Shown here: positions 2,264-48,873 of the stretch, piece by piece | Layout: every line of letters starts with the position of its first letter | Position numbering within the stretch: position 1 is the first letter of the stretch | Assembly (NCBI GenBank): GCA_964504645.1 | Contig: CAZDGB010000001.1 | Location: forward strand, 10,247 to 71,928 | Direction of reading: 5' to 3' | Origin: an uncultured Planctomycetaceae bacterium | Lineage (GTDB): Bacteria; Planctomycetota; Planctomycetia; Planctomycetales; Planctomycetaceae | Length of the DNA: 61,682 nucleotides | Program-made: the position numbers and the translations under genes | The notes under the pieces: model-generated | What the model saw: only the letters and a program-made list of their open reading frames with translations | Told to the model about the DNA's origin: nothing | The model's database searches: none

Positions 2264-5200
2264 TCACCGACGTTCGTTCGTCGGGGATTGGCCGGTGCGG
2301 GGAATGAATGTGCGGGGCGTCGGGCGGTTTTGACGCGGCTCGAAGCTTCCCAAAAATTGCCGCAGGGTGTCGTCGAGCTCCGGGATGGGCCGCACTTCGA
2401 CTTGCGGGTCGCTGATGTCGCCGGAAACGGTCACGCCGTAGAGCCCGTCGCTGAGCAGGCCGATCACGTCGCTGACGATCGGGACGCGGAGACGGTTGCG
2501 GGGCAACTTGGAATAGAACTCCAGATTGACGACGCGGTCGAACCGCACGCTGCCGCGGCCGCGCAGCCGGATGGCGTTCCCCACCAGGTCGATCTCCTGG
2601 AAGTTGAACCGCTGGTCGCCGACGGTGAACAGCATCGTCGCTTCCTGAAACGCCGAGCGTTCCTGAAACTGCGGGCCGAGCGCCTGGAACATCTTCACGA
2701 AGACGGGGGCGTCGTACAATTCCGCCGGGCGAATGACCATGCGGCCGGAACCGGTCATTGATTCGGCGTCCTCGCCGCGGCCTTGCAGATCGAGCCAGCC
2801 GTTGATGTTGCCGCGGACATTGTTCTGCCCCTGGAGGTACGATTTCGCATAGCGTTCCAGGTTGCCGCCGATCATCAGCAGCCGCAGCCGGTACTGGCAT
2901 TCGGGATCGAACTTGACGATGGCGTTCATCGTCAGCGTGCCGTCGATCGCTTTGGCGTTGATCTGGTCGGCGAGCGGCACATTCTCCGCGGCTTGCATGA
3001 CCGGTCCGACGGCGGCCTGCCGGGAGCCGGCGATGATTTCTCCCTGCTGAAAGCGGAACGGCCCGCGGACTTCCGTGAGTTGATGCTGCAGGATTTCCAA
3101 CGAATCGAGATCGAGCATGCCTTGGCGGATTTCCGTGGTCTTGCCATCCCAAGACCCTTGCAGCGAGACGCGGCCGTAGATGTTCTCGATCCGTTGTCCC
3201 AGCGTGAGATTCGATCCCGACAAGAGCAGATCGGAGTTCCATTCCATACGGATCGTGTCGCGGTCTTCGTTCGGCCCGTAAAACGCAATCGGCCCCTGTA
3301 CGGAGACCGTCCCCGTGGGATTGAGCGAGTCGACCACCGTGCGGAGTTCGCCCGGCAGCGTGCGCCGCAACGCGGGGGTCATCGGCAAGTCGTCGACGAA
3401 GAATTCATTGAACCGGAATTGCCACGGCCGATCGGCGGGAAAGACGCCGGCCCCTTTCCCGCGCAGCCGGCAGTCGTCGTGCTCGGCGTGCAGCTCGTGC
3501 ACCGTCAGCCGGTCGTGCTCGTAGCTCATGTCGGCGGCGACGTCGTTCCATGGGAAGGGAAAGTTCCGCAGCGTGACGCCGGCGTTCTTCAGCTTGATGT
3601 TCGGCAGCTTGAGTTCGAACTCGCCTCCCGGAGTCCAGGCGACGTGCGTCTCGGCGTCGAACCGTCCGGTCGGGCGAAATTCGTTCCAAGCGTCTTGCAA
3701 GCGGGGCGGAAGCGCCTCGAGCAGTTCGGCGTCGAACGGCGCGTCGTTGATGTGGATTACAAGCTTCAGCTTGCCATTCGCCGGCGCCTTGGCAAACGTG
3801 CCGTTGCAGGTGAAGACGGCGTCGGCGTGCTTGCCTTTGAGCGACTCGAACTTCGCGACCTCGCCATTCCAGCGGACCAGCCCGGTGATGCGGTCGATCC
3901 GCAGCGGAAAACGCTGGAAATGCACGCTGCAGTCTTTCAGCCGCGTGACGACATGCGTCTCGGCTTTCGCGCCGATGCCCGCCGGCTTGATGAACTTGAC
4001 CCAGGCATCCGCCGCACCGCGCAGCTCGAGCGTCTGAGCCGCCATCCGCACGGCGGCCGGACTGGCCTGCAGCAGCGCGGCGTCGATGGGCACGTCGTCG
4101 GCCTTCAGCAGAATCACCATTTCCGCGCCCGGTCCCGGCTTCGTGATCGTTCCCGTCACCACCACCGGCGACGAGCCGGCGTTGCCGCGGCCTTCCAGAT
4201 GGGCCTGGTCGCCGTGCCAGGAGAGTTTGCCGGTGACGTCGCGCACCGGATAGCGGAACTTCTCGTAGTTCACGCTGCCGTCGCGCAACGTCAGTTCGAC
4301 GTCGGGAAGATAGACTTGCTCGGTCCGTGTGAGCTGCGCGTCGAGATCGCATATCCCGCGCAGCGACAGCGTGCGGATCAGCCGCGCGAGCGGTTCCGGC
4401 AAACGGGCCGTCAGCATGTCGTCGATGACGATCTCGCGAGCCTTCACCGTGAGGGCCGGAAACTTGCCGGTCTCCCATTTTGCGGAGCAGGTGATCGTCG
4501 ATTCGCCGTGCCGGCCGCGCAATTCTTGCATGACGACTTGTGAGGAATCGGCGTAGAACTTGCCGGTCACGCCATCCATCGGCAGCGGCAAGAGCTTGTT
4601 CGTCAAGCGCCCGTCGCGGATATCGGCCATGACCTGGAACTTCGGCGCTGCGCCTGGTTCCGCACTCGAAAAGCGGGCCTGCAGATGGGTCAGGAGCTGC
4701 ACGCCGAGTTCCGGGACGCCGGAGCTTTGGGCCATCAAGTCTTGCGGGCGGTTGCCGGTGACGTCGGGCCGCTGCAATTTTCCTTTGGCGAGGTGTATCC
4801 ACCGCGTTTGATGCTGCTCGAGCAGTTGCCGCCATTCCGGCCGGATGGTGAGAATCTTCCCGATGAGCGCTTTGTCGATCACCAGGCCGTCGACGTCGAC
4901 ACCCAGTTTCCACGGGGAGCCGTCGAGAGACAGATCGCCGTCGATGCGCACCGGTCCCGTCCCGTCCACGCGGCTCGACAGCGCCACGGCCCAACTGCGG
5001 TCCGACGATGGCGTCGCCGTGAGTCGCAACTCCGTGCAGTTGATGTCGAGCGGCGGTTCGGGCCGCGGCTGCTCGAACTGTACCGTCACCGTGCCGTGCT
5101 CGATCTCCACGTCGGGCAACAATCCGCCCGGCGTGCGCTGCACCTGCAACTGCTTCCAGTTCCACGTCTCATCCGTCCGCCGTACGACCCACGCCCGCGG

Positions 5201-24224: not shown

Positions 24225-24480
24225 TGTGGCGCACGCAGCGGCACGTTTTCAACAAGCACGATCTTAGCGCGATTGACCGAGCAGCCGGCGTGTCCGATTC
24301 GGACCATTTCTCGACAACTTGTCGCGCAACACCACATGGAAATAGGGAGAGCGGTTTCCACTCGCTGGGGCGCTTTCTCGACACGCTGTCTCGAAATCGA
24401 ACTTGCGCGGAATTCCCCACATGCCCACTGTTCGAGTCGATTGCCTAGCCCGCCCGCTCTACCAAACACGCATTAACGAT

Positions 24481-24687
24481 CGCTGATTTGAGGCTCGCCA
24501 CAGCACGCCAAGCGACAGATAACCGCCAGCTAAGCGACGCTAAGCCGACATTAAGCGACAGTTAAGCGACGATAGGCAGCGCCTCGCGATCACCGACCGC
24601 ACGCTTGATTTGCAAACACTTTGTCGCGCAACGCCGACCGGTTGGATGAGGGGACGATTTGTCGTCTCACGCTCTTTGACAACCCGG
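24481..24687 (-). repeat. ~205-bp repeat element, copy 1 (element orientation on minus strand)
   Basis: Its reverse complement aligns by eye with 43814..44018. Near-identical blocks: CCGGGTTGyCAAAGAGC, ATCGTCCCCTCA, CGGCGTTGCGCrACAAAGTGTTTGCAAA, CGGTTATCTGyCGCTTGGCGTGCTGTGGC, AATCAGCG. Lies about 40 nt downstream of the kinase-family gene stop. Confidence 0.85.
24508..24575 (-). promoter_or_regulatory. equivalent phased direct-repeat array inside repeat copy 1
   Basis: Plus strand reads CCAAGCGACAGA TAACCGCCAGC TAAGCGACGC TAAGCCGACAT TAAGCGACAGT TAAGCGACGAT, a TAAGCG core every 10-12 nt. Confidence 0.6.
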
Positions 24688-24727
24688 ATGAAACTCTTTT
24701 GGACCGCGACTCGCTGTCCGGCGAACG

Positions 24728-43813: not shown

Positions 43814-44018
43814 CCGGGTTGCCAAAGAGCACTGGACGAAGATCGTCCCCTCACCTGACCGGGCGGCGTTGCGCAACAAAGTGTTTGCAAACAGGCGCCC
43901 GGCCGAGGGTCGCCGCGCGCCGCATATCGCCGCTTAGTTGACGCTTAATGACGCCTTCTCGACTCTTAGTTGACGGTTATCTGCCGCTTGGCGTGCTGTG
44001 GCCTACTACGAATCAGCG
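43814..44018 (+). repeat. ~205-bp repeat element, copy 2
   Basis: Same blocks as copy 1, in inverted orientation relative to it. Starts about 50 nt after the AAA ATPase stop and ends 4 nt before the left 26-bp inverted repeat of the cassette. Confidence 0.85.
43931..43995 (+). promoter_or_regulatory. array of six ~11-bp phased direct repeats (consensus CGCTTAnnTGa) inside repeat copy 2
   Basis: Units: CGCTTAGTTGA / CGCTTAATGA / CGCCTTCTCGA / CTCTTAGTTGA / CGGTTATCTGC / CGCTTGGCGTG. Periods are 11, 10, 11, 11, 11 nt. Confidence 0.6.
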
Positions 44019-44022
44019 AAGG

Positions 44023-44048
44023 CCGCAATTTGCGGGTTTGTGCACACA
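44023..44048 (+). repeat. left terminal inverted repeat (26 bp)
   Basis: CCGCAATTTGCGGGTTTGTGCACACA is the exact reverse complement of 47084..47109. The outer 13 nt (CCGCAATTTGCGG) is itself a near-palindrome. Confidence 0.9.
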
Positions 44049-44076
44049 GCCGCTTTCCCGCGCCCGCCCACCTTGA

Positions 44077-44093
44077 CGTAGCCACGTTAAGTC
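44077..44093 (+). promoter_or_regulatory. 17-nt GTAGCCAC motif, copy 1
   Basis: CGTAGCCACGTTAAGTC, preceded by TTGA. Lies 42 nt upstream of ATG 44136. Confidence 0.55.
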
Positions 44094-44135
44094 TGACAAT
44101 TGCCCTGTGGATTCACTGCACTACAGGAGCAAGCG

Positions 44136-44462
44136 ATGAATGCCAGGGGGCAGCTAAGCCAGGAAGAGATTGCGAAAGTAAAGGCGTGGATTTCTGAGAA
44201 CCGCGAGGACGCTTCGCGGTGCCCATTTTGCGGTTGCAACGGCGATATGGATGTCGCCCCGCACGTCGTGCAGCTTTCGGCGTGGCGTCCGAAATCGTCA
44301 GACAAGCGAACGCTAACTTATCCGGCAGTGATGTGGGCATGTTTGAGATGCGGCTATATGGCGTTGCTCAATGCGTTAATCGTTGGCGTGTTGGAGACGA
44401 ACGCCGAAGACATTCTTCAGCCTGTGGAAAAGCCCTCTGACGAGGAGAAGTCCAATGGCTGA
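44136..44462 (+). CDS. small four-Cys zinc-ribbon protein (108 aa), unknown family
   Basis: AGGAG RBS 6 nt upstream of ATG 44136. CPFCGC ... CLRCGY cysteine pairs. Hydrophobic C-proximal helix MALLNALIVGVL. Overlaps the next ORF by 8 nt. Confidence 0.6.
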   Translation: MNARGQLSQEEIAKVKAWISENREDASRCPFCGCNGDMDVAPHVVQLSAWRPKSSDKRTLTYPAVMWACLRCGYMALLNALIVGVLETNAEDILQPVEKPSDEEKSNG

Positions 44463-44877
44463 TCCGAACTGCAATGACCCCAAAGAGAGCGGACAGACAA
44501 AAGCGCCGCGCAATAGAAGAAAATTGGCCGGCGCTTCGCCAAGCGGTGCGGTCTACAGACAAACGCACATGGAGCGGGACGTGAAAATATATCCGATAGA
44601 CGAAACCGGGATGAAAATGCTGGCGATGCTGAACGACCTCAGCACGTTCTTCTTTTCAGCGGCGGTGTTCTGCGCGACCACGGCGTTCGACCTGTGGTCT
44701 GGCATTGAAATCGAGAACAGCCCAGCCGAAAACGCTAAGCACGAGATGGGGAAAATTGAATGGGTATGCCTTGTCCTCGGCATCGGTTGCTTCTTGGCGG
44801 GTTGCTATGCCGTTTGGTCGCGAAACACGGAGATCAGCAGAATCAAGAGGGAGTCGCGGGAAGTGACCATTAACTAA
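44455..44877 (+). CDS. small 2-TM membrane protein (140 aa), unknown family
   Basis: GAGGAG RBS 7 nt upstream of ATG 44455. Basic, disordered N-terminus. TM helices LSTFFFSAAVFCATTAFDLW and WVCLVLGIGCFLAGCYAVW. The last 8 nt overlap the convergent transposase 3' end. Confidence 0.55.
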   Translation: MADPNCNDPKESGQTKAPRNRRKLAGASPSGAVYRQTHMERDVKIYPIDETGMKMLAMLNDLSTFFFSAAVFCATTAFDLWSGIEIENSPAENAKHEMGKIEWVCLVLGIGCFLAGCYAVWSRNTEISRIKRESREVTIN

Positions 44878-45766
44878 CCAGTTCACGATGCGGCAAACGG
44901 CGTCCGTTCGATTGAGTCAGAATCCGCTGAAAAAAGTGATCGTTCCGATCCTTCCGCGAGTTGAAGCGGGAATCGAATTCCGAGAGATACCGATGAAGAT
45001 GCTTCTTGCTAATGCGGTGAAACGAACCGATGCAGGCGCGGGCAAACAGGCTCCACGCATTCTCGGCACCGTTGCAATGAACGCCTCCCGGCGACACGAA
45101 CCAGTCGGAGTGATCGCAGACGCCGTGGCTACGGCACATTTCGCCGAGTTGGTTGTAAGACTTCAGCTGATCGGTATGCAGGTCCGTGTTCTCCATGTCG
45201 ATGTAGTTCTCGGCGAACTCAATCATGGTCGCCTTGCGAACGTTCGGAATGTGCGCCGTGCGAATCTTGCCGGTGCTGGACTCCACGGCACCGAGAACAA
45301 TCGGACGATCCGTGGCGCGGCCATTCTTGCTCTTACCCGAACCACGGCGGGGCGGGCCACCAGCGAAGTGCTCGTCCATTTGGACGATGCCGCTGAACAG
45401 TTCCGTGCCATCTTCACGCATCGCTTCGCGGATTCTGTGACACATGTGCCAGCAGCATTCCTGCGAGATTTTGAGTTCGCGGTTCATCTCCAGCGACGAC
45501 TTGGACTTCTTGGCGTTCAACAGGATGAAAATCGCCATGAACCACTTTTTCAGTCCAATGTGCGACTGGTGGAAAATCGTGCCGCTCGTTGCCGAGAACC
45601 GGTAGCGACAACCAAGACACGTCCATTGGCGACGCTTCGGAAGCACGCTCACGCGAGCGCAGTTGCACTTCGGGCATTGAACGCCGTCTGGCCAGCGAAC
45701 GCGAATCAAGTGTTGGCGGCACGCTTCGTCATTGGGGAATTGTTCCAACAGTTCAAACAATGTCAT
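44870..45766 (-). CDS. IS1595-family (ISXO2-like) DDE transposase
   Basis: N-terminal transposase Zn-ribbon: WPDGVQCPKCNCARVSVLPKRRQWTCLGCRYRFSATSGTIF. DDE region: VQMDEHFAGG ... LHTDQLKSYNQL ... NGAENAWSLFARACIGSFHRISKKHLHRYLSEFDSRFNSR. Confidence 0.85.
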   Translation of the reverse strand: MTLFELLEQFPNDEACRQHLIRVRWPDGVQCPKCNCARVSVLPKRRQWTCLGCRYRFSATSGTIFHQSHIGLKKWFMAIFILLNAKKSKSSLEMNRELKISQECCWHMCHRIREAMREDGTELFSGIVQMDEHFAGGPPRRGSGKSKNGRATDRPIVLGAVESSTGKIRTAHIPNVRKATMIEFAENYIDMENTDLHTDQLKSYNQLGEMCRSHGVCDHSDWFVSPGGVHCNGAENAWSLFARACIGSFHRISKKHLHRYLSEFDSRFNSRKDRNDHFFQRILTQSNGRRLPHRELVS

Positions 45767-45896
45767 CGAACTCGCCTTGAGGCTGCGGCGGGTTCGCGTA
45801 CAATTCGGTTTACCAGACGCGATTGGGCGAACCAGCCTGATTGTGTTGCCCGTCAGTCGTTAGCGCGACTGGCGGGTTTTCTTTTCATGTCGTAAG

Positions 45897-45913
45897 TGTA
45901 GCCACACTTACTC
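45897..45913 (+). promoter_or_regulatory. 17-nt GTAGCCAC motif, copy 2
   Basis: TGTAGCCACACTTACTC, immediately followed by AGGAG and the GTG at 45928. Confidence 0.55.
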
Positions 45914-45927
45914 AGGAGTCAATAGTC

Positions 45928-46173
45928 GTGGCCACAAAAATCGGATTGACAATCAAAAAAAACGTAGCTACGCTTACTCGGATGGGAAGGCCGATGCTGC
46001 CAGACGACGAGCGCCGCGAGAAGCCGCTTAGAATCCGCATGTCGGATGAAGAGCGCGAGCTTGTCGATAGAGCCGCCGAGGCGACTGGCCAGACCACATC
46101 TCAGTGGGCGCGGGACATTCTTGAGCGCGCCGCCAAGAAGCAAGTTGGCGACGAGAAGCGACCCAAGAACTAG
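45928..46173 (+). CDS. ribbon-helix-helix (CopG/MetJ-type) DNA-binding protein
   Basis: KPLRIRMSDEERELVDRAAEATGQTTSQWARDILERAA has the strand-helix-helix pattern. Start is either GTG 45928 (AGGAG 10 nt upstream) or ATG 45982. Confidence 0.6.
   Translation: MATKIGLTIKKNVATLTRMGRPMLPDDERREKPLRIRMSDEERELVDRAAEATGQTTSQWARDILERAAKKQVGDEKRPKN
45963..45979 (+). promoter_or_regulatory. 17-nt motif, copy 3 (perfect palindromic core GTAGCTAC)
   Basis: CGTAGCTACGCTTACTC, 2 nt upstream of the ATG at 45982. Sits 66 nt from copy 2. Confidence 0.5.
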
Positions 46174-46256
46174 GTCGGAAGTCTGGGCGATTCGTCCATG
46201 ATGCTGTCGTAACGCATCGGCGGCGGTCGCAGATCACCCTATTCGGGAGGCGAGCC

Positions 46257-47021
46257 GTGTATTTATTGCGTTTGGCTCAAGGCGTTGCCAGGTTTGTTGG
46301 CGGCCTTTTTGGCGCGATTTGGAAGTCGCTTCGCACGCCGTATCCAGTCCCCCCTTACGATTCCGAATGGGAAAAGGACTACGAGTGGTATCAGACTTTT
46401 CAGCCCAGCAAAGACACCGGACTTTACTCTCGGCTGAAGGACGATGCGAGCGAACGCTACAAGGAGCTTGTCGAAGTCTTTAACTCCATCGACTCAAAGG
46501 CGGAGTGGGTTTTCGGCATTGCCATCGGCGGATTGGCCGGTGTCTTTGCTGCAGTATTGCCGTGGAAACTACCGTTTCTGTCCATACTTCCCACGGTAGC
46601 CGCGCTCTTGGTCACAATGTGGGTCGCGCTTCGGTGCCGGATTCCGAACGACCGCCCGGCACCGATGACAGTGCAGCGCATGATGAAGTTGGTGGAAACG
46701 TACCCCGCCGAGTTCGACGGCATTTATAGCGCCAGCACACACATGGCAATCGAGGGACTCAAGCGCGTGAATAAGTGGAAAACGCTTTTGGTTCGAGGAG
46801 CGGTTTACTCACTTTTGGTTGGCGCGCTGGGCTTCATCTTTCCTTTGGGTTTCCTCGAAATTCAACGTCACCGGGACGCGGCTTCCAACCGTTCTAAATC
46901 ATGTCAATTGGCGGTGGACGCTCGGCAGGCGGCGGCGTGGGTGTGGGATTGGGAGTGGCGGGCGTCGGATTCGGCGGCGAAGAAGAACCAGAACCAGGAT
47001 CAGACATTGATGGCTCCCTGA
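46257..47021 (+). CDS. multi-TM membrane protein (254 aa), unknown family; weak resemblance to SLATT/Pycsar-type TM effector N-regions
   Basis: GGGAGG RBS ~7 nt upstream of GTG 46257. Soluble helical N-region (ASERYKELVEVFNSIDSKAEW) runs into TM helices VFGIAIGGLAGVFAAVL, LSILPTVAALLVTMWVAL and AVYSLLVGALGFIFPLGFL. The family resemblance is from memory only. Confidence 0.55.
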   Translation: MYLLRLAQGVARFVGGLFGAIWKSLRTPYPVPPYDSEWEKDYEWYQTFQPSKDTGLYSRLKDDASERYKELVEVFNSIDSKAEWVFGIAIGGLAGVFAAVLPWKLPFLSILPTVAALLVTMWVALRCRIPNDRPAPMTVQRMMKLVETYPAEFDGIYSASTHMAIEGLKRVNKWKTLLVRGAVYSLLVGALGFIFPLGFLEIQRHRDAASNRSKSCQLAVDARQAAAWVWDWEWRASDSAAKKNQNQDQTLMAP

Positions 47022-47042
47022 GAGACAGTCGCCAGGACAAGG

Positions 47043-47059
47043 CGTAGCCACATTATGTC
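47043..47059 (+). promoter_or_regulatory. 17-nt GTAGCCAC motif, copy 4
   Basis: CGTAGCCACATTATGTC. Ends 24 nt before the right inverted repeat and faces outward toward gene 47083..47412. Confidence 0.55.
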
Positions 47060-47082
47060 AATCAGGATACGGACTTACAACA

Positions 47083-47412
47083 GTGTGTGCACAAACCCGC
47101 AAATTGCGGGCCGCGTTGATCCTGGCGACGGCGTGGCATCTGCGAGATCGCGCCGCCTATGCGGGCGCGTGCGTCCTGTTCTGGAGCGGGGCGGCGCTGA
47201 TTCCGCTCGTCACCGTGAAAACCGCTGCGGCGCGTACGATCCTGGCGCTGGTCGCGGCCAGCTATGCGATCACCGGCGTGCTGACTGTCCTTACGCTGTG
47301 TGATCCGCCGCGAATCGCGATTTCGCCCGACATCGTGTGGCTGCACTGGCTCGCGGCACTGTGCGTACCGGTGTCGCTGTGGATCGTCAGTTTGTGGGAG
47401 CCGGAGGAATAA
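47083..47412 (+). CDS. small high-GC membrane protein (3-4 TM), unknown family
   Basis: Strong G/C third-position bias in this frame. Helices ALILATAWHL.., ACVLFWSGAALIPLV, ILALVAASYAITGVLTVL, WLHWLAALCVPVSLWIV. The first 9 codons of the longest ORF lie in the 26-bp right inverted repeat, so the real start may be TTG 47104 or TTG 47116. Confidence 0.55.
   Translation: MCAQTRKLRAALILATAWHLRDRAAYAGACVLFWSGAALIPLVTVKTAAARTILALVAASYAITGVLTVLTLCDPPRIAISPDIVWLHWLAALCVPVSLWIVSLWEPEE
47084..47109 (-). repeat. right terminal inverted repeat (26 bp)
   Basis: TGTGTGCACAAACCCGCAAATTGCGG is the exact reverse complement of 44023..44048. Confidence 0.9.
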
Positions 47413-47451: not shown

Positions 47452-47868
47452 CTACGATGCGAACGCCGCGATTTGAAATGCGACGCCGTAGTCGATGAAG
47501 TCCTCTTCGGGAATCGGACGGTTGCGGACGACGCGACCGGGCATCCAGCGAATCAGACCATCGGGCCGTTTCAGCCCGATCGATACCACCAGGTCGACGA
47601 TGGGGACCAACGCAACGAACCCGATGCCTCCCTGCGAGAGATTGTAAGCCCAGGCGGGAAACGTGGTCGGGTGGTCTTCGCTCGGCGGCGGGCCTTCGGG
47701 CGACACCAGGCAGACCAGAATCTGCCCCTGAAAGTCTTTGCGGTCGTGCTTCCGCACGCGCTTGTACTGGGTCTCCGTCCGGTTCTCTGACGCCGACAAT
47801 TTGTCGAGGATCCGCTTGAGCGAACGGTTTTCCCGCTCGGTGTATTGAGGGATTCCAATGGCCGGCAT
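47452..47868 (-). CDS. PilZ-domain (c-di-GMP binding) protein
   Basis: RKHDRKDF is the RxxxR motif. NLSQGGIGF, about 30 residues later, is the (D/N)xSxxG motif. Confidence 0.8.
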   Translation of the reverse strand: MPAIGIPQYTERENRSLKRILDKLSASENRTETQYKRVRKHDRKDFQGQILVCLVSPEGPPPSEDHPTTFPAWAYNLSQGGIGFVALVPIVDLVVSIGLKRPDGLIRWMPGRVVRNRPIPEEDFIDYGVAFQIAAFAS

Positions 47869-47892
47869 GATGCGCTCGCTACAGCGGTGAGA

Positions 47893-48438
47893 TTACACCG
47901 GTTGAGAGACAAAGGCGTCCAGACGTTCCAGTTCCTGCCGCACGGCATCAAGGAAATGTCCGGCGGCGTCGACTTCGTTTTCCTGTACCAGCCGGGTGAT
48001 CACCTCGGCGACTTTCAGCAGCGCGCTGCTCGTGTCGACGCGGCCCGCCGGCGCACCCTGAATCGCTTCCAGCGTGGTCTTCAGCAATTCGGGATCGATG
48101 GGCTTGAAGAGGACGTCGACGAAGCCGATGTCTTTCGCCAGCCGGATTTTCTCGACGTCCTTCAGCGGAGATTTCTCCTGGCCTGGACGCACGGCGGTCA
48201 TCAGCACGAAAGCCGGCGCAGTCCTCCGGAGGCGCGACGACTGTTTGAACAGCTCCACGCCGTCCATTTCCGGCATGATCAAGTCGGTGAGCACGATGCC
48301 GATCGTCGGATCTTCTTCCAGGACCTGTAGCGCCTGCGCGCCGGATTCAGCCGCCAGAGATTTGAAGCCGAATTTTTGCAACAGCCGCGTGTGGTAGTGC
48401 CGCGAGTATCCGACGTCGTCGACCACCAAAACCTTCAT
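47893..48438 (-). CDS. CheY-like response regulator (REC domain plus ~50-aa C-terminal extension, no output domain)
   Basis: MKVLVVDDVGYSR, phospho-acceptor context IVLTDLIMPEMDG, and conserved Lys in VLFKP. Confidence 0.85.
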   Translation of the reverse strand: MKVLVVDDVGYSRHYHTRLLQKFGFKSLAAESGAQALQVLEEDPTIGIVLTDLIMPEMDGVELFKQSSRLRRTAPAFVLMTAVRPGQEKSPLKDVEKIRLAKDIGFVDVLFKPIDPELLKTTLEAIQGAPAGRVDTSSALLKVAEVITRLVQENEVDAAGHFLDAVRQELERLDAFVSQPV

Positions 48439-48492
48439 GAAGTCACTTTCCAGAGCGCAAGGAAGAACAAAGAGATGATGGGCAAAGAGAGA

Positions 48493-48873
48493 CTAGCGGT
48501 GCGACGACAGAAAATGGGTCACCGCCACATCGAGCTGAGCGAGCGAAGATTTGAGCGCGTCGAACAGCAGCGGCGCGTCCTCCAGGGACTGGTTCTTGCC
48601 GCTGAATTCCAATTCCCGCGCGAGGTGATACGGACGTTTGGTGGAGAACGTGCCGATCGACCCTTTGAGCGTGTGAGCCACGAGCGCAATGCGGTCCCCG
48701 TCCCGGACGGCCACGGCGTCGGCGAGTTCTACCAGCAGCCGGTCGCGGTTCTCCGCGAACAGTTCCGCCAGTTCCCCGAGCAGCTCCAGATCGTCGCAAG
48801 CCCGATCCATCGCCTCCGCGGGGTCGAAGATCTCGGACTCGGAAAGGGAAGCAGTGACTAGCTCCGACATCAC
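48493..48873 (-). CDS. Hpt (histidine phosphotransfer) domain protein
   Basis: LLGELAELFAENRDRLLVELADAV ... ALVAHTLKGSIGTF, which contains the HxxKG phospho-His motif. Confidence 0.8.
   Translation of the reverse strand: MMSELVTASLSESEIFDPAEAMDRACDDLELLGELAELFAENRDRLLVELADAVAVRDGDRIALVAHTLKGSIGTFSTKRPYHLARELEFSGKNQSLEDAPLLFDALKSSLAQLDVAVTHFLSSHR

Follow-up and report, generated by a model that had tools for sequence, protein, structure and literature searches.

We analyzed a 61,682-nucleotide stretch of DNA from an uncultured Planctomycetaceae bacterium (contig CAZDGB010000001.1; hereafter the window, meaning the whole stretch). At 44023-47109 it contains what is, with high probability, an IS1595-family transporter insertion sequence (tIS), complete and probably active, which belongs to a planctomycete subgroup, lies at a deletion junction and carries expressed passenger cargo. 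Such tIS were reportedly defined in this family by Siguier, Gagnevin and Chandler in 2009. A preliminary description of the same DNA had proposed an IS1595-family tIS bounded by repeats of 26 bp, and this proposal is supported by homologous repeats in six related elements, by target duplications, by an empty site and by the finding of no shorter ends.

The element is bounded by perfect terminal inverted repeats (IRs). The left repeat (IRL, 44023-44048, plus strand, CCGCAATTTGCGGGTTTGTGCACACA) lies on the side of a cargo operon for proteins of 108 and 140 amino acids (aa), and its exact reverse complement forms the right repeat (IRR, 47084-47109, minus strand), with 26 of 26 positions paired, as had already been noticed. 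No further match to CCGCAATTTGCGGGTTTGTGCACACA with up to 3 mismatches was found in the window, and none in 100 shuffles. The pairing runs weakly on into the flanks (37 nt, 89%) because the target preference is palindromic. Between the repeats lies the gene for a full-length IS1595-family transposase of 298 aa (44870-45766, minus strand) with an N-terminal zinc ribbon and a DDE domain, and its earlier reading as an intact IS1595-type DDE transposase is borne out by matches to PF12762 DDE_Tnp_IS1595 (6.7e-29), PF12760 Zn_ribbon_IS1595 (4.1e-12) and NF033547 transpos_IS1595 (1.5e-49), all above the curated cut-offs of Pfam and NCBIfam. The search for homologues of this transposase returned 1811 proteins, and residues D131, D199, N232 and E235 are invariant in an alignment of 28 transposase sequences. 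We found no inverted repeats tight around the transposase gene in the window, in agreement with the preliminary description, and the homology between elements stops at the outer IRs, which leaves no shorter genuine IS ends near this gene.

The element is also set off by its base composition. Its G+C content of 55.9% compares with 63.4% for the remaining window and lies below the lowest value (60.6%) among 262 other windows of 3087 bp. The contrast of 57% against 68% given earlier is real but smaller; the 303-bp gene fragment directly outside the element, with 66%, is the only part that reaches so high. Four open reading frames (ORFs) besides the transposase are supported, encoding 108 aa, 140 aa, a ribbon-helix-helix (RHH) protein of 63 aa and 254 aa, whereas the fifth of the small ORFs counted before is not. 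As in the transposase gene, G+C at the third codon position (GC3) exceeds that at the first (GC1), which exceeds that at the second (GC2), in all four. GC3 is 0.65-0.70 in the cargo and transposase genes vs 0.77-0.85 in host genes.

The evidence for mobility comes mainly from six related elements, with transposases 62-94% identical (L002; L004; L005, also L006-L010; L011, also L012-L013; L103; L104). In 6/6, inverted homologues of the 26-mer enclose the transposase gene, 2282-3915 bp apart, and the 26-bp ends of the subgroup take the form nCGCAATTTGCGGnTTwyTGCACA. All six are flanked by perfect 6-bp direct repeats (CTTTCG, TAACAA, CGAACT, AAACGG, AATAGG and CGCCCC), although duplications of 6 and 7 bp are indistinguishable here, since the base after the duplication is always the first base of the left IR. 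The 8-bp duplication that had been expected is thus replaced by one of 6 bp throughout the relatives. These duplications are embedded in a palindromic target of approximately GCATCAA-N6-TTGATGC. Over 14 half-sites, the bases adjoining the hexamer, read from position -5 to position -1, were A in 12, T in 13, C in 9, A in 13 and A in 10. A relaxed pattern, ATCAR-N6-YTGAT, occurs only once in the 61.7-kb window. The seven elements of the family occupy six distinct insertion sites, one of which is shared by the window element and L002. Judged by this conservation across elements, the 26-bp repeats are the genuine ends of the IS. The cargo ORFs lie between the IRs in 7/7 elements and, in the relatives, the duplications lie outside them. 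Passengers are therefore carried inside the IRs throughout, and mobility is shown by the differing sites together with the empty site found for the right junction of the window element. Looking for copies elsewhere, as had been suggested, gave no identical copies; it gave the six relatives at differing sites with duplications.

The same comparison bears on the alternative that the segment is a DNA switch, a site-specific invertible segment bounded by 26-bp inverted recombination sites, which the preliminary description had kept in view. Perfect IRs without a duplication would suit such a switch. However, no serine or tyrosine recombinase domain is found among the ORFs in or beside the segment, the same repeats bound transposase elements with duplications at unrelated sites, and four independent junction-covering contigs (L001, L097, L101 and L102) all show the orientation of the window. 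We give this explanation next to no credence.

The subgroup appears to live in planctomycetes. We scanned 185,579 species genomes for a degenerate form of the IRs; this collection, which does not include the source genome, yielded only the L011 metagenome-assembled genome (MAG) GCA_041940305.1, a Planctomycetaceae MAG, and one further lone match in a Saccharibacteria MAG, which is probably due to chance. The genes next to the relatives belong to the PSCyt, PSD and DUF1501 families and point to planctomycete hosts. The best transposase match in a plasmid collection was at most 35% identical, and a metagenome scan with a transposase profile returned only distant ISNwi1-like relatives (35-52%), which we used as an outgroup only.

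The flanks account for the absence of a visible target duplication, which had been noted before and was confirmed here (CGAAGG on the left, GCCGCG on the right). To the left, 43814-44022 (minus strand) is half of an intergenic repeat, RepA, and is 81% identical to 24497-24687 on the opposite strand and 96.7% identical to the flank of L002. RepA is about 400 bp long; the window holds an intact copy and a half copy, inverted with respect to one another. The intact copy (24225-24690, plus strand) is unoccupied, and each of its halves aligns with one flank of the L002 element. L002 itself occupies exactly the point of RepA at which the window element lies, oriented as the latter is, with both halves present and a normal duplication. 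The intact RepA also has a target-like site at approximately 24470, which fits the consensus at 8 of 10 flanking positions. To the right, 47110-47412 (plus strand) comprises the last 100 codons of a truncated gene for a tetratricopeptide repeat (TPR)-plus-membrane protein, which is intact in L098 and L100. Contigs L098, L099 and L100 are 95-96.5% identical to the window up to 47105-47110, the outer edge of IRR, where the homology stops; beyond it they continue into the rest of the TPR-membrane gene (355 aa or more in L098 and L100, 271 aa or more in L099) and thus present an empty site. Checking relatives for empty sites had been suggested, and for the right junction one was found. The empty site shows that the 109-aa ORF at 47083-47412 is what the truncation left of the TPR-membrane gene at its 3′ end, and the 5′ part of this gene is absent from the whole window. 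Three contigs, L097, L101 and L102, repeat the arrangement of the window.

Both flanks keep half of a target at the correct spacing, ATCAG-N6 beside IRL and N6-TTGAT beside IRR. Since the two flanks also differ in origin, the two ends abut two different genuine targets, and this is why the window copy has no duplication. On this basis, we propose that IRL abuts a target in the intergenic repeat downstream of an AAA-ATPase gene, that IRR abuts a different target inside the TPR-membrane gene, and that the DNA between both sites was lost. The deletion may have arisen by recombination between two directly oriented copies of the element, or by intramolecular transposition as in the adjacent deletions of IS1. 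We conclude that the element probably marks the junction of a deletion that reached from the repeat to the middle of the TPR gene. Two other constructions were rejected. An inversion between two copies cannot place the repeat half and the 3′ part of the gene on the same copy; a deletion alone can do so. A host ORF of 125 aa, obtained by joining 43948-44022 in-frame to 47110-47412 and suggestive of a small gene split without a duplication, is contradicted by a left flank that is a non-coding repeat and by a true gene of at least 355 aa whose 5′ part is different. An exact look-up of the AAA ATPase found nothing, and the ancestral arrangement downstream of its gene was not recovered.

The flanks likewise decide on the suggestion that this is an old simple insertion whose duplication has decayed and which is now a fixed, immobile island. 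The missing duplication would agree with it, as would the single copy of the exact element on record. However, the IRs match at 26/26 positions and the full-length transposase retains every residue that is invariant in the family; the flanking 6-mers share 1/6 bases; and the 5′ part of the TPR gene is neither to the left of the element nor elsewhere in the window, so the flanks never formed one target. With contigs L098-L100 ruling out a single original target, we consider an old insertion very improbable.

The site shared with L002 raised another explanation, in which the flanks became chimeric by replacement, recombination or horizontal transfer having exchanged a resident element at the repeat site for a diverged relative. 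Replacement would explain how the window and L002 come to have a common site with different cargo, and it fits a left junction and orientation that are the same as in L002, with a flank 96.7% identical but a core only 87% identical, evenly so, and unrelated cargo. Nevertheless, it does not account for a right flank made up of the 3′ portion of a gene that relatives have intact, and IRs of 26 bp are too short for efficient homologous exchange. Furthermore, the strict-consensus target is rare, so two independent insertions at one site are plausible. The cores of the window element and L002 have diverged by 13% at the same site, with unrelated cargo, and the host DNA differs by about 4%; the best explanation for the shared site is that the two elements inserted independently into a target that is rare and close to the consensus, and replacement strikes us as improbable.

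RepA has received two different tIS, and its own features are worth recording. In the intact copy, 24510-24570 holds 5.6 tandem copies of an 11-bp unit, AAGCGACAGCT, and the repeat contains the palindromes GTTGCGCAAC and GTTTGCAAAC. A protein-binding array, a MITE and a regulatory region are candidates for its nature.

Turning to the interior, DNA homology between the window element and L002 is limited to the IRs and a 1.26-kb core (44876-46137) with 87% identity, evenly spread. The core consists of the transposase gene and the divergently transcribed RHH gene (63 aa; 45982-46173, plus strand), whose product matches the NikA-like, TacA and DUF6290 families in Pfam, an Arc-like repressor family in PHROG and also RelB-type antitoxin models. 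A hidden Markov model (HMM) of the RHH proteins matched at 17 loci in total. All seven elements whose ends are complete carry the gene, as does every member of the clade in which transposase identity is 50% or more, and none of the 79 more distant ISNwi1-like relatives that were fetched gave a match. Therefore, the RHH gene is part of the IS core and not cargo. The preliminary description had listed the RHH protein among the cargo and had arranged the latter as two pairs of a small DNA- or metal-binding protein with a membrane protein; with the RHH gene conserved in all seven elements as core, neither view could be kept.

Between the two core genes lies a divergent and strongly conserved control region (45895-45981) with three GT[AG]GC[CT]AC boxes (45898, 45928 and 45964), which are invariant in the alignment of seven elements. 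The boxes overlap both promoters of this region. A promoter scan located the first, a sigma-70-like transposase promoter at 45922-45895 on the minus strand (TTGACT-16-TACACT); the second, the RHH promoter on the plus strand (TTGACA-17-TACGCT), was picked out by eye. The ATG of the RHH gene lies 7-8 nt past the -10 element, so a leaderless RHH mRNA is probable. In the 3087-bp element the box is found 6 times vs 0.22 times expected, and in the other 58.6 kb 0 times. Its placement recurs in the relatives, with three boxes in the control region in 6/6 and a fourth box 20-41 bp upstream of the cargo start in 5/6. In the window element, the left cargo operon is preceded by a promoter-like site from the same type of scan (TTGACG-16-GACAAT, 44073-44100, plus strand) with a GTAGCCAC box in its spacer (44078-44085), and L004 and L011 likewise have the motif CTTGACGT[AG]GC[CT]ACG upstream of their cargo genes.

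Two further boxes stand apart. The sixth, again GTAGCCAC (47044-47051, plus strand), lies 32 bp inside IRR and adjoins an inward-facing promoter-like site (TTGTAA-17-CATAAT, minus strand, 47080-47052). Together, this box and promoter-like site (47044-47083) resemble the cargo-promoter module by the other IR, and they may be left over from an earlier cargo slot at this end, or may form a promoter antisense to the gene for the 254-aa protein. Another box, GTGGCTAC, is found at 45125-45132 inside the coding region of the transposase, possibly by chance or possibly as an internal operator.

The last conserved feature of the core is an intrinsic terminator with a 13-bp stem and a T-run (45848-45887, plus strand), which faces transcripts running antisense through the transposase gene. 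It is the strongest terminator-like site in the region and is conserved with compensatory changes in 7/7 elements. In all seven, G-U pairs give it the greater stability on the antisense strand of the transposase gene (-20.6 to -25.8 vs -15.4 to -21.3 kcal/mol). Rfam gave no RNA family match anywhere in the window.

Overall, we suggest a putative scheme of control. On the simplest reading, the GT[AG]GC[CT]AC boxes would be operators of the RHH protein, a predicted repressor. Bound to the boxes that overlap the transposase, RHH and cargo promoters, the protein would repress all three. The cargo transcript would start by IRL, cross the cargo genes, run antisense over the whole transposase gene and end at 45848-45887. 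In this way, cargo expression may damp transposase expression, either through antisense RNA or through transcriptional interference.

The cargo itself occupies a slot bordered by one IR and by the transposase gene at its 3′ end. Some elements have an additional slot on the opposite side of the core, bordered by the RHH gene and the other IR; in five of the seven elements, nothing lies between the RHH gene and the IR. Every element has a cargo gene convergent with the transposase gene, and the two frequently overlap at the 3′ end of the latter. In the window, the first cargo gene (44136-44462, plus strand, from the ORF list; GC3 0.65) encodes a 108-aa zinc-ribbon-like protein with two CxxC pairs. 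Its only Pfam match, to a Lar-like family, is sub-threshold, and it has no match in PADLOC, PHROG, NCBIfam or the PDB. Its stop overlaps the start of the second gene, which looks coupled to it. This second gene (44455-44877, plus strand, also from the ORF list) encodes a 140-aa protein with two transmembrane (TM) segments, and its last 8 bp overlap the transposase gene at the 3′ end of the latter; no family matched its product in Pfam, PADLOC or PHROG. The third (46257-47021, plus strand), downstream of the RHH gene, encodes a 254-aa membrane protein. A word-indexed search of 5.8 billion proteins returned only the 140-aa and 254-aa proteins themselves, and an exact look-up of the 254-aa protein found nothing. 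An exhaustive HMMER search placed the latter in a remote family of 135 clusters, in which 11 of 60 aligned members match PADLOC models of PycTM (best 6.4e-6), the window protein itself reaching only E = 0.02. The AlphaFold2 model (pLDDT 91) is all-helical; a Foldseek search of the PDB with this model gave nothing below E = 0.27, and no Pfam family matches the sequence. The closest relative of this protein that was looked up sits outside any tIS.

L001 and L097, assembled from short reads of the source sample SRR13608714, break off inside the element at approximately 46234-46246, between the RHH gene and the gene for the 254-aa protein. This could reflect low coverage, or a second variant that has only part of the element in common.

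The cargo of the relatives is different again. That of L002 comprises a 291-aa DUF6731 protein and a 149-aa protein with 4 TM segments, plus ORFs of 164 aa and 44 aa, whereas the other elements carry single ORFs of 268, 331, 349, 269 and 418 aa. The proteins of these single ORFs begin with hydrophobic, TM-like segments, judged by eye from the translations. Apart from L103-L104, the cargo proteins are mutually unrelated, and none has a Pfam family besides DUF6731. The 149-aa protein of L002 gives a weak match to RexB (6e-4). In L002, the DUF6731 gene is followed by the 149-aa gene (3039-4360), both match PHROG prophage families of no assigned function, and the order and sizes of the two genes recall rexA-rexB. 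As a RexA homologue, the DUF6731 protein found no relevant match in the PDB and showed no similarity to RexA; our literature search found no paper that mentions DUF6731.

What the cargo does can be weighed against one specific alternative, namely that the passengers form two toxin-antitoxin (TA) or abortive-infection pairs that stabilise the element, with the RHH protein as the antitoxin of the 254-aa protein. The matches of the RHH protein to TacA- and RelB-type antitoxin models suit this idea, as do effector-like membrane proteins (PycTM-like in the 254-aa family, weakly RexB-like in the 149-aa protein of L002) and the overlapping, apparently coupled 108- and 140-aa genes. However, the RHH protein also matches NikA-like and Arc-like repressor models, and its candidate operators sit at the transposase promoter. 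In a type II TA system, the RHH gene would always stand beside a toxin gene; here it is present in 7/7 elements, and in 5/7 no gene lies between it and the IR, so it is not a dedicated partner of the 254-aa protein. Additionally, no toxin or defence model in Pfam, PADLOC, NCBIfam or PHROG was significant for the three window cargo proteins. We therefore hold it unlikely that the passengers are such pairs, although the zinc-ribbon and 2-TM proteins could still make up a two-gene module of the TA or abortive-infection type. The earlier idea of a mobile membrane effector or abortive-infection-like module thus keeps some weak backing from the PycTM-like matches in the 254-aa family, whereas its toxin-antitoxin pairs are not supported. 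Our best guess, and a weak one, is that the window cargo consists of membrane-acting conflict or exclusion proteins.

Several points weigh against the assignment of 44023-47109 as an active, cargo-expressing IS1595-family tIS at a deletion junction. The norm in the IS1595 family is an 8-bp target duplication. The window copy has no target duplication at all, its flanking hexamers having one of six bases in common, and the exact element is on record in one copy only, so the mobility of the 3087-bp unit is deduced from its relatives and its own junctions. The deletion junction, likewise, is read from the flanks of the window copy. On the regulatory side, L002 has no box upstream of its cargo; the binding of the RHH protein to the boxes, the activity of the promoters, the antisense transcript and its termination are all predictions; and the promoter calls are made for planctomycetes, whose promoters are poorly known. 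Finally, an already-named equivalent of the subgroup in ISfinder is possible. We nevertheless consider the assignment highly probable as a whole.

Two neighboring observations complete the description. To the right of the element, 47452-48873 (minus strand) holds a small signalling cluster with genes for a PilZ-like protein of 138 aa and a response-regulator receiver protein and with a 126-aa ORF (48493-48873); the PilZ-like gene is identical in the six metagenome contigs L097-L102. Among more distant relatives, a 51%-identical transposase (P0035) lies in a 3447-bp tIS at 3261-6707 of L107. Its 38-bp ends are different (ATAATATAACGCACTGTAGTCCAATTTGCACACGG...), with only the inner TGCACACG part of the IR common to the family of the window, and it carries four small ORFs with no Pfam match, at the same chromosomal locus in many samples. 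P0035 was rejected as a multi-copy test because all its contigs are one locus in different samples, with other ends.

Transporter IS blur the boundary between insertion sequence and transposon, and little is known of the content and expression of their cargo. The subgroup described here offers a compact model, with defined ends, a strict palindromic target, a predicted RHH regulator, countable boxes, a conserved antisense terminator and a cargo slot that holds another uncharacterised membrane protein in nearly every element. The window element further shows a tIS remodelling a planctomycete chromosome, in that the host TPR-membrane gene is cut at the deletion junction. We speculate, as a doubtful idea, that this IS1595 subgroup, and perhaps the wider ISNwi1-like tIS group, serves as a dedicated shuttle for small, fast-turnover membrane conflict genes, for example for abortive-infection, exclusion or toxin-like effectors. 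Each cargo would sit in a standard slot behind a promoter under RHH control, and its transcript, antisense to the transposase gene, would make cargo expression and transposition mutually exclusive. If so, it would be a minimal mobile expression platform, like the cassette site of an integron but within an IS. Should the cargo turn out to serve in defence or conflict, tIS could be counted, beside integrons, prophages and Tn7-like elements, among the vehicles of such genes; otherwise, this remains a well-documented but ordinary IS annotation.

Compared with known systems, the 254-aa protein resembles the effectors PycTM of Pycsar and RexB of phage lambda as a small helical membrane protein. Unlike Pycsar and Rex, the element gave no match in Pfam, PADLOC or the PDB to a cyclase, a cyclic-nucleotide-binding domain or RexA, and on present evidence the protein is not a member of either system. 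With IS1, to which the IS1595 family has been reported to be related (title of Siguier 2009, cited in PMC3129680), the element has in common a small DNA-binding protein that is the predicted repressor of the transposase promoter (InsA in IS1) and an apparent IS-adjacent deletion. It differs from IS1 in that its regulator is a divergently encoded RHH protein, and not a zinc-finger/helix-turn-helix protein that shares the reading frame of the transposase.

Within the IS1595 family, the ISNha5 subgroup comprises large tIS (3.4-7.9 kb) with CGGnnTT ends, a DDER/K motif and reported 8-bp duplications. Like the window element, these are large cargo-carrying members; the window end motif CGCAATT agrees with CGGnnTT at 6/7 positions, which is a lead only. 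The relatives at 35-43% identity (L018-L096), which we take to be ISNwi1-type tIS (ends ggnnatTAT, 8-bp duplication), are similar in having a convergent passenger slot downstream of the transposase gene. They measure 1.8-3.3 kb and carry passengers without a match in Pfam, several of which bear a pair of TM helices at the N terminus (for example, in L041, L031, L046 and L056). In soil and peat metagenomes, a passenger of about 300-320 aa that starts with MT(V/I)GIG.LCE... and has no Pfam match recurs in many of them (L084 1455-2420, L091 3126-4094, L095, L061, L049, L066 and L073, for example). The passengers of this wider group thus seem to be largely uncharacterised proteins. Unlike the window subgroup, these relatives have GGGATTATATACTTGACA... 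ends, 8-bp duplications and no RHH gene. The window element does not belong with them, since it has nCGCAATTTGCGG... ends and a family duplication of 6 bp, whereas they carry GGGATTAT... ends and duplications of 8 bp.

According to two sources, the tIS category was defined for IS1595 members, and tIS occur in no families other than IS1595 and IS66 (PMC3129680; bioRxiv 10.1101/2021.05.26.445724). The window element has the DDE and zinc-ribbon domains and the bounding IRs of the IS1595 family; its relatives have duplications of 6 bp and not the usual 8 bp. Like other IS1595 tIS, it and its relatives combine a single DDE transposase bearing an N-terminal zinc ribbon, terminal IRs, a target duplication and passengers inside the IRs; unlike them, they have a 6-bp duplication, other ends, an RHH gene with its boxes and a strongly palindromic target. 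Judged from these ends, the 6-bp duplication, the palindromic target and the predicted control by RHH protein and boxes, the window subgroup is a distinct subgroup of IS1595 tIS.

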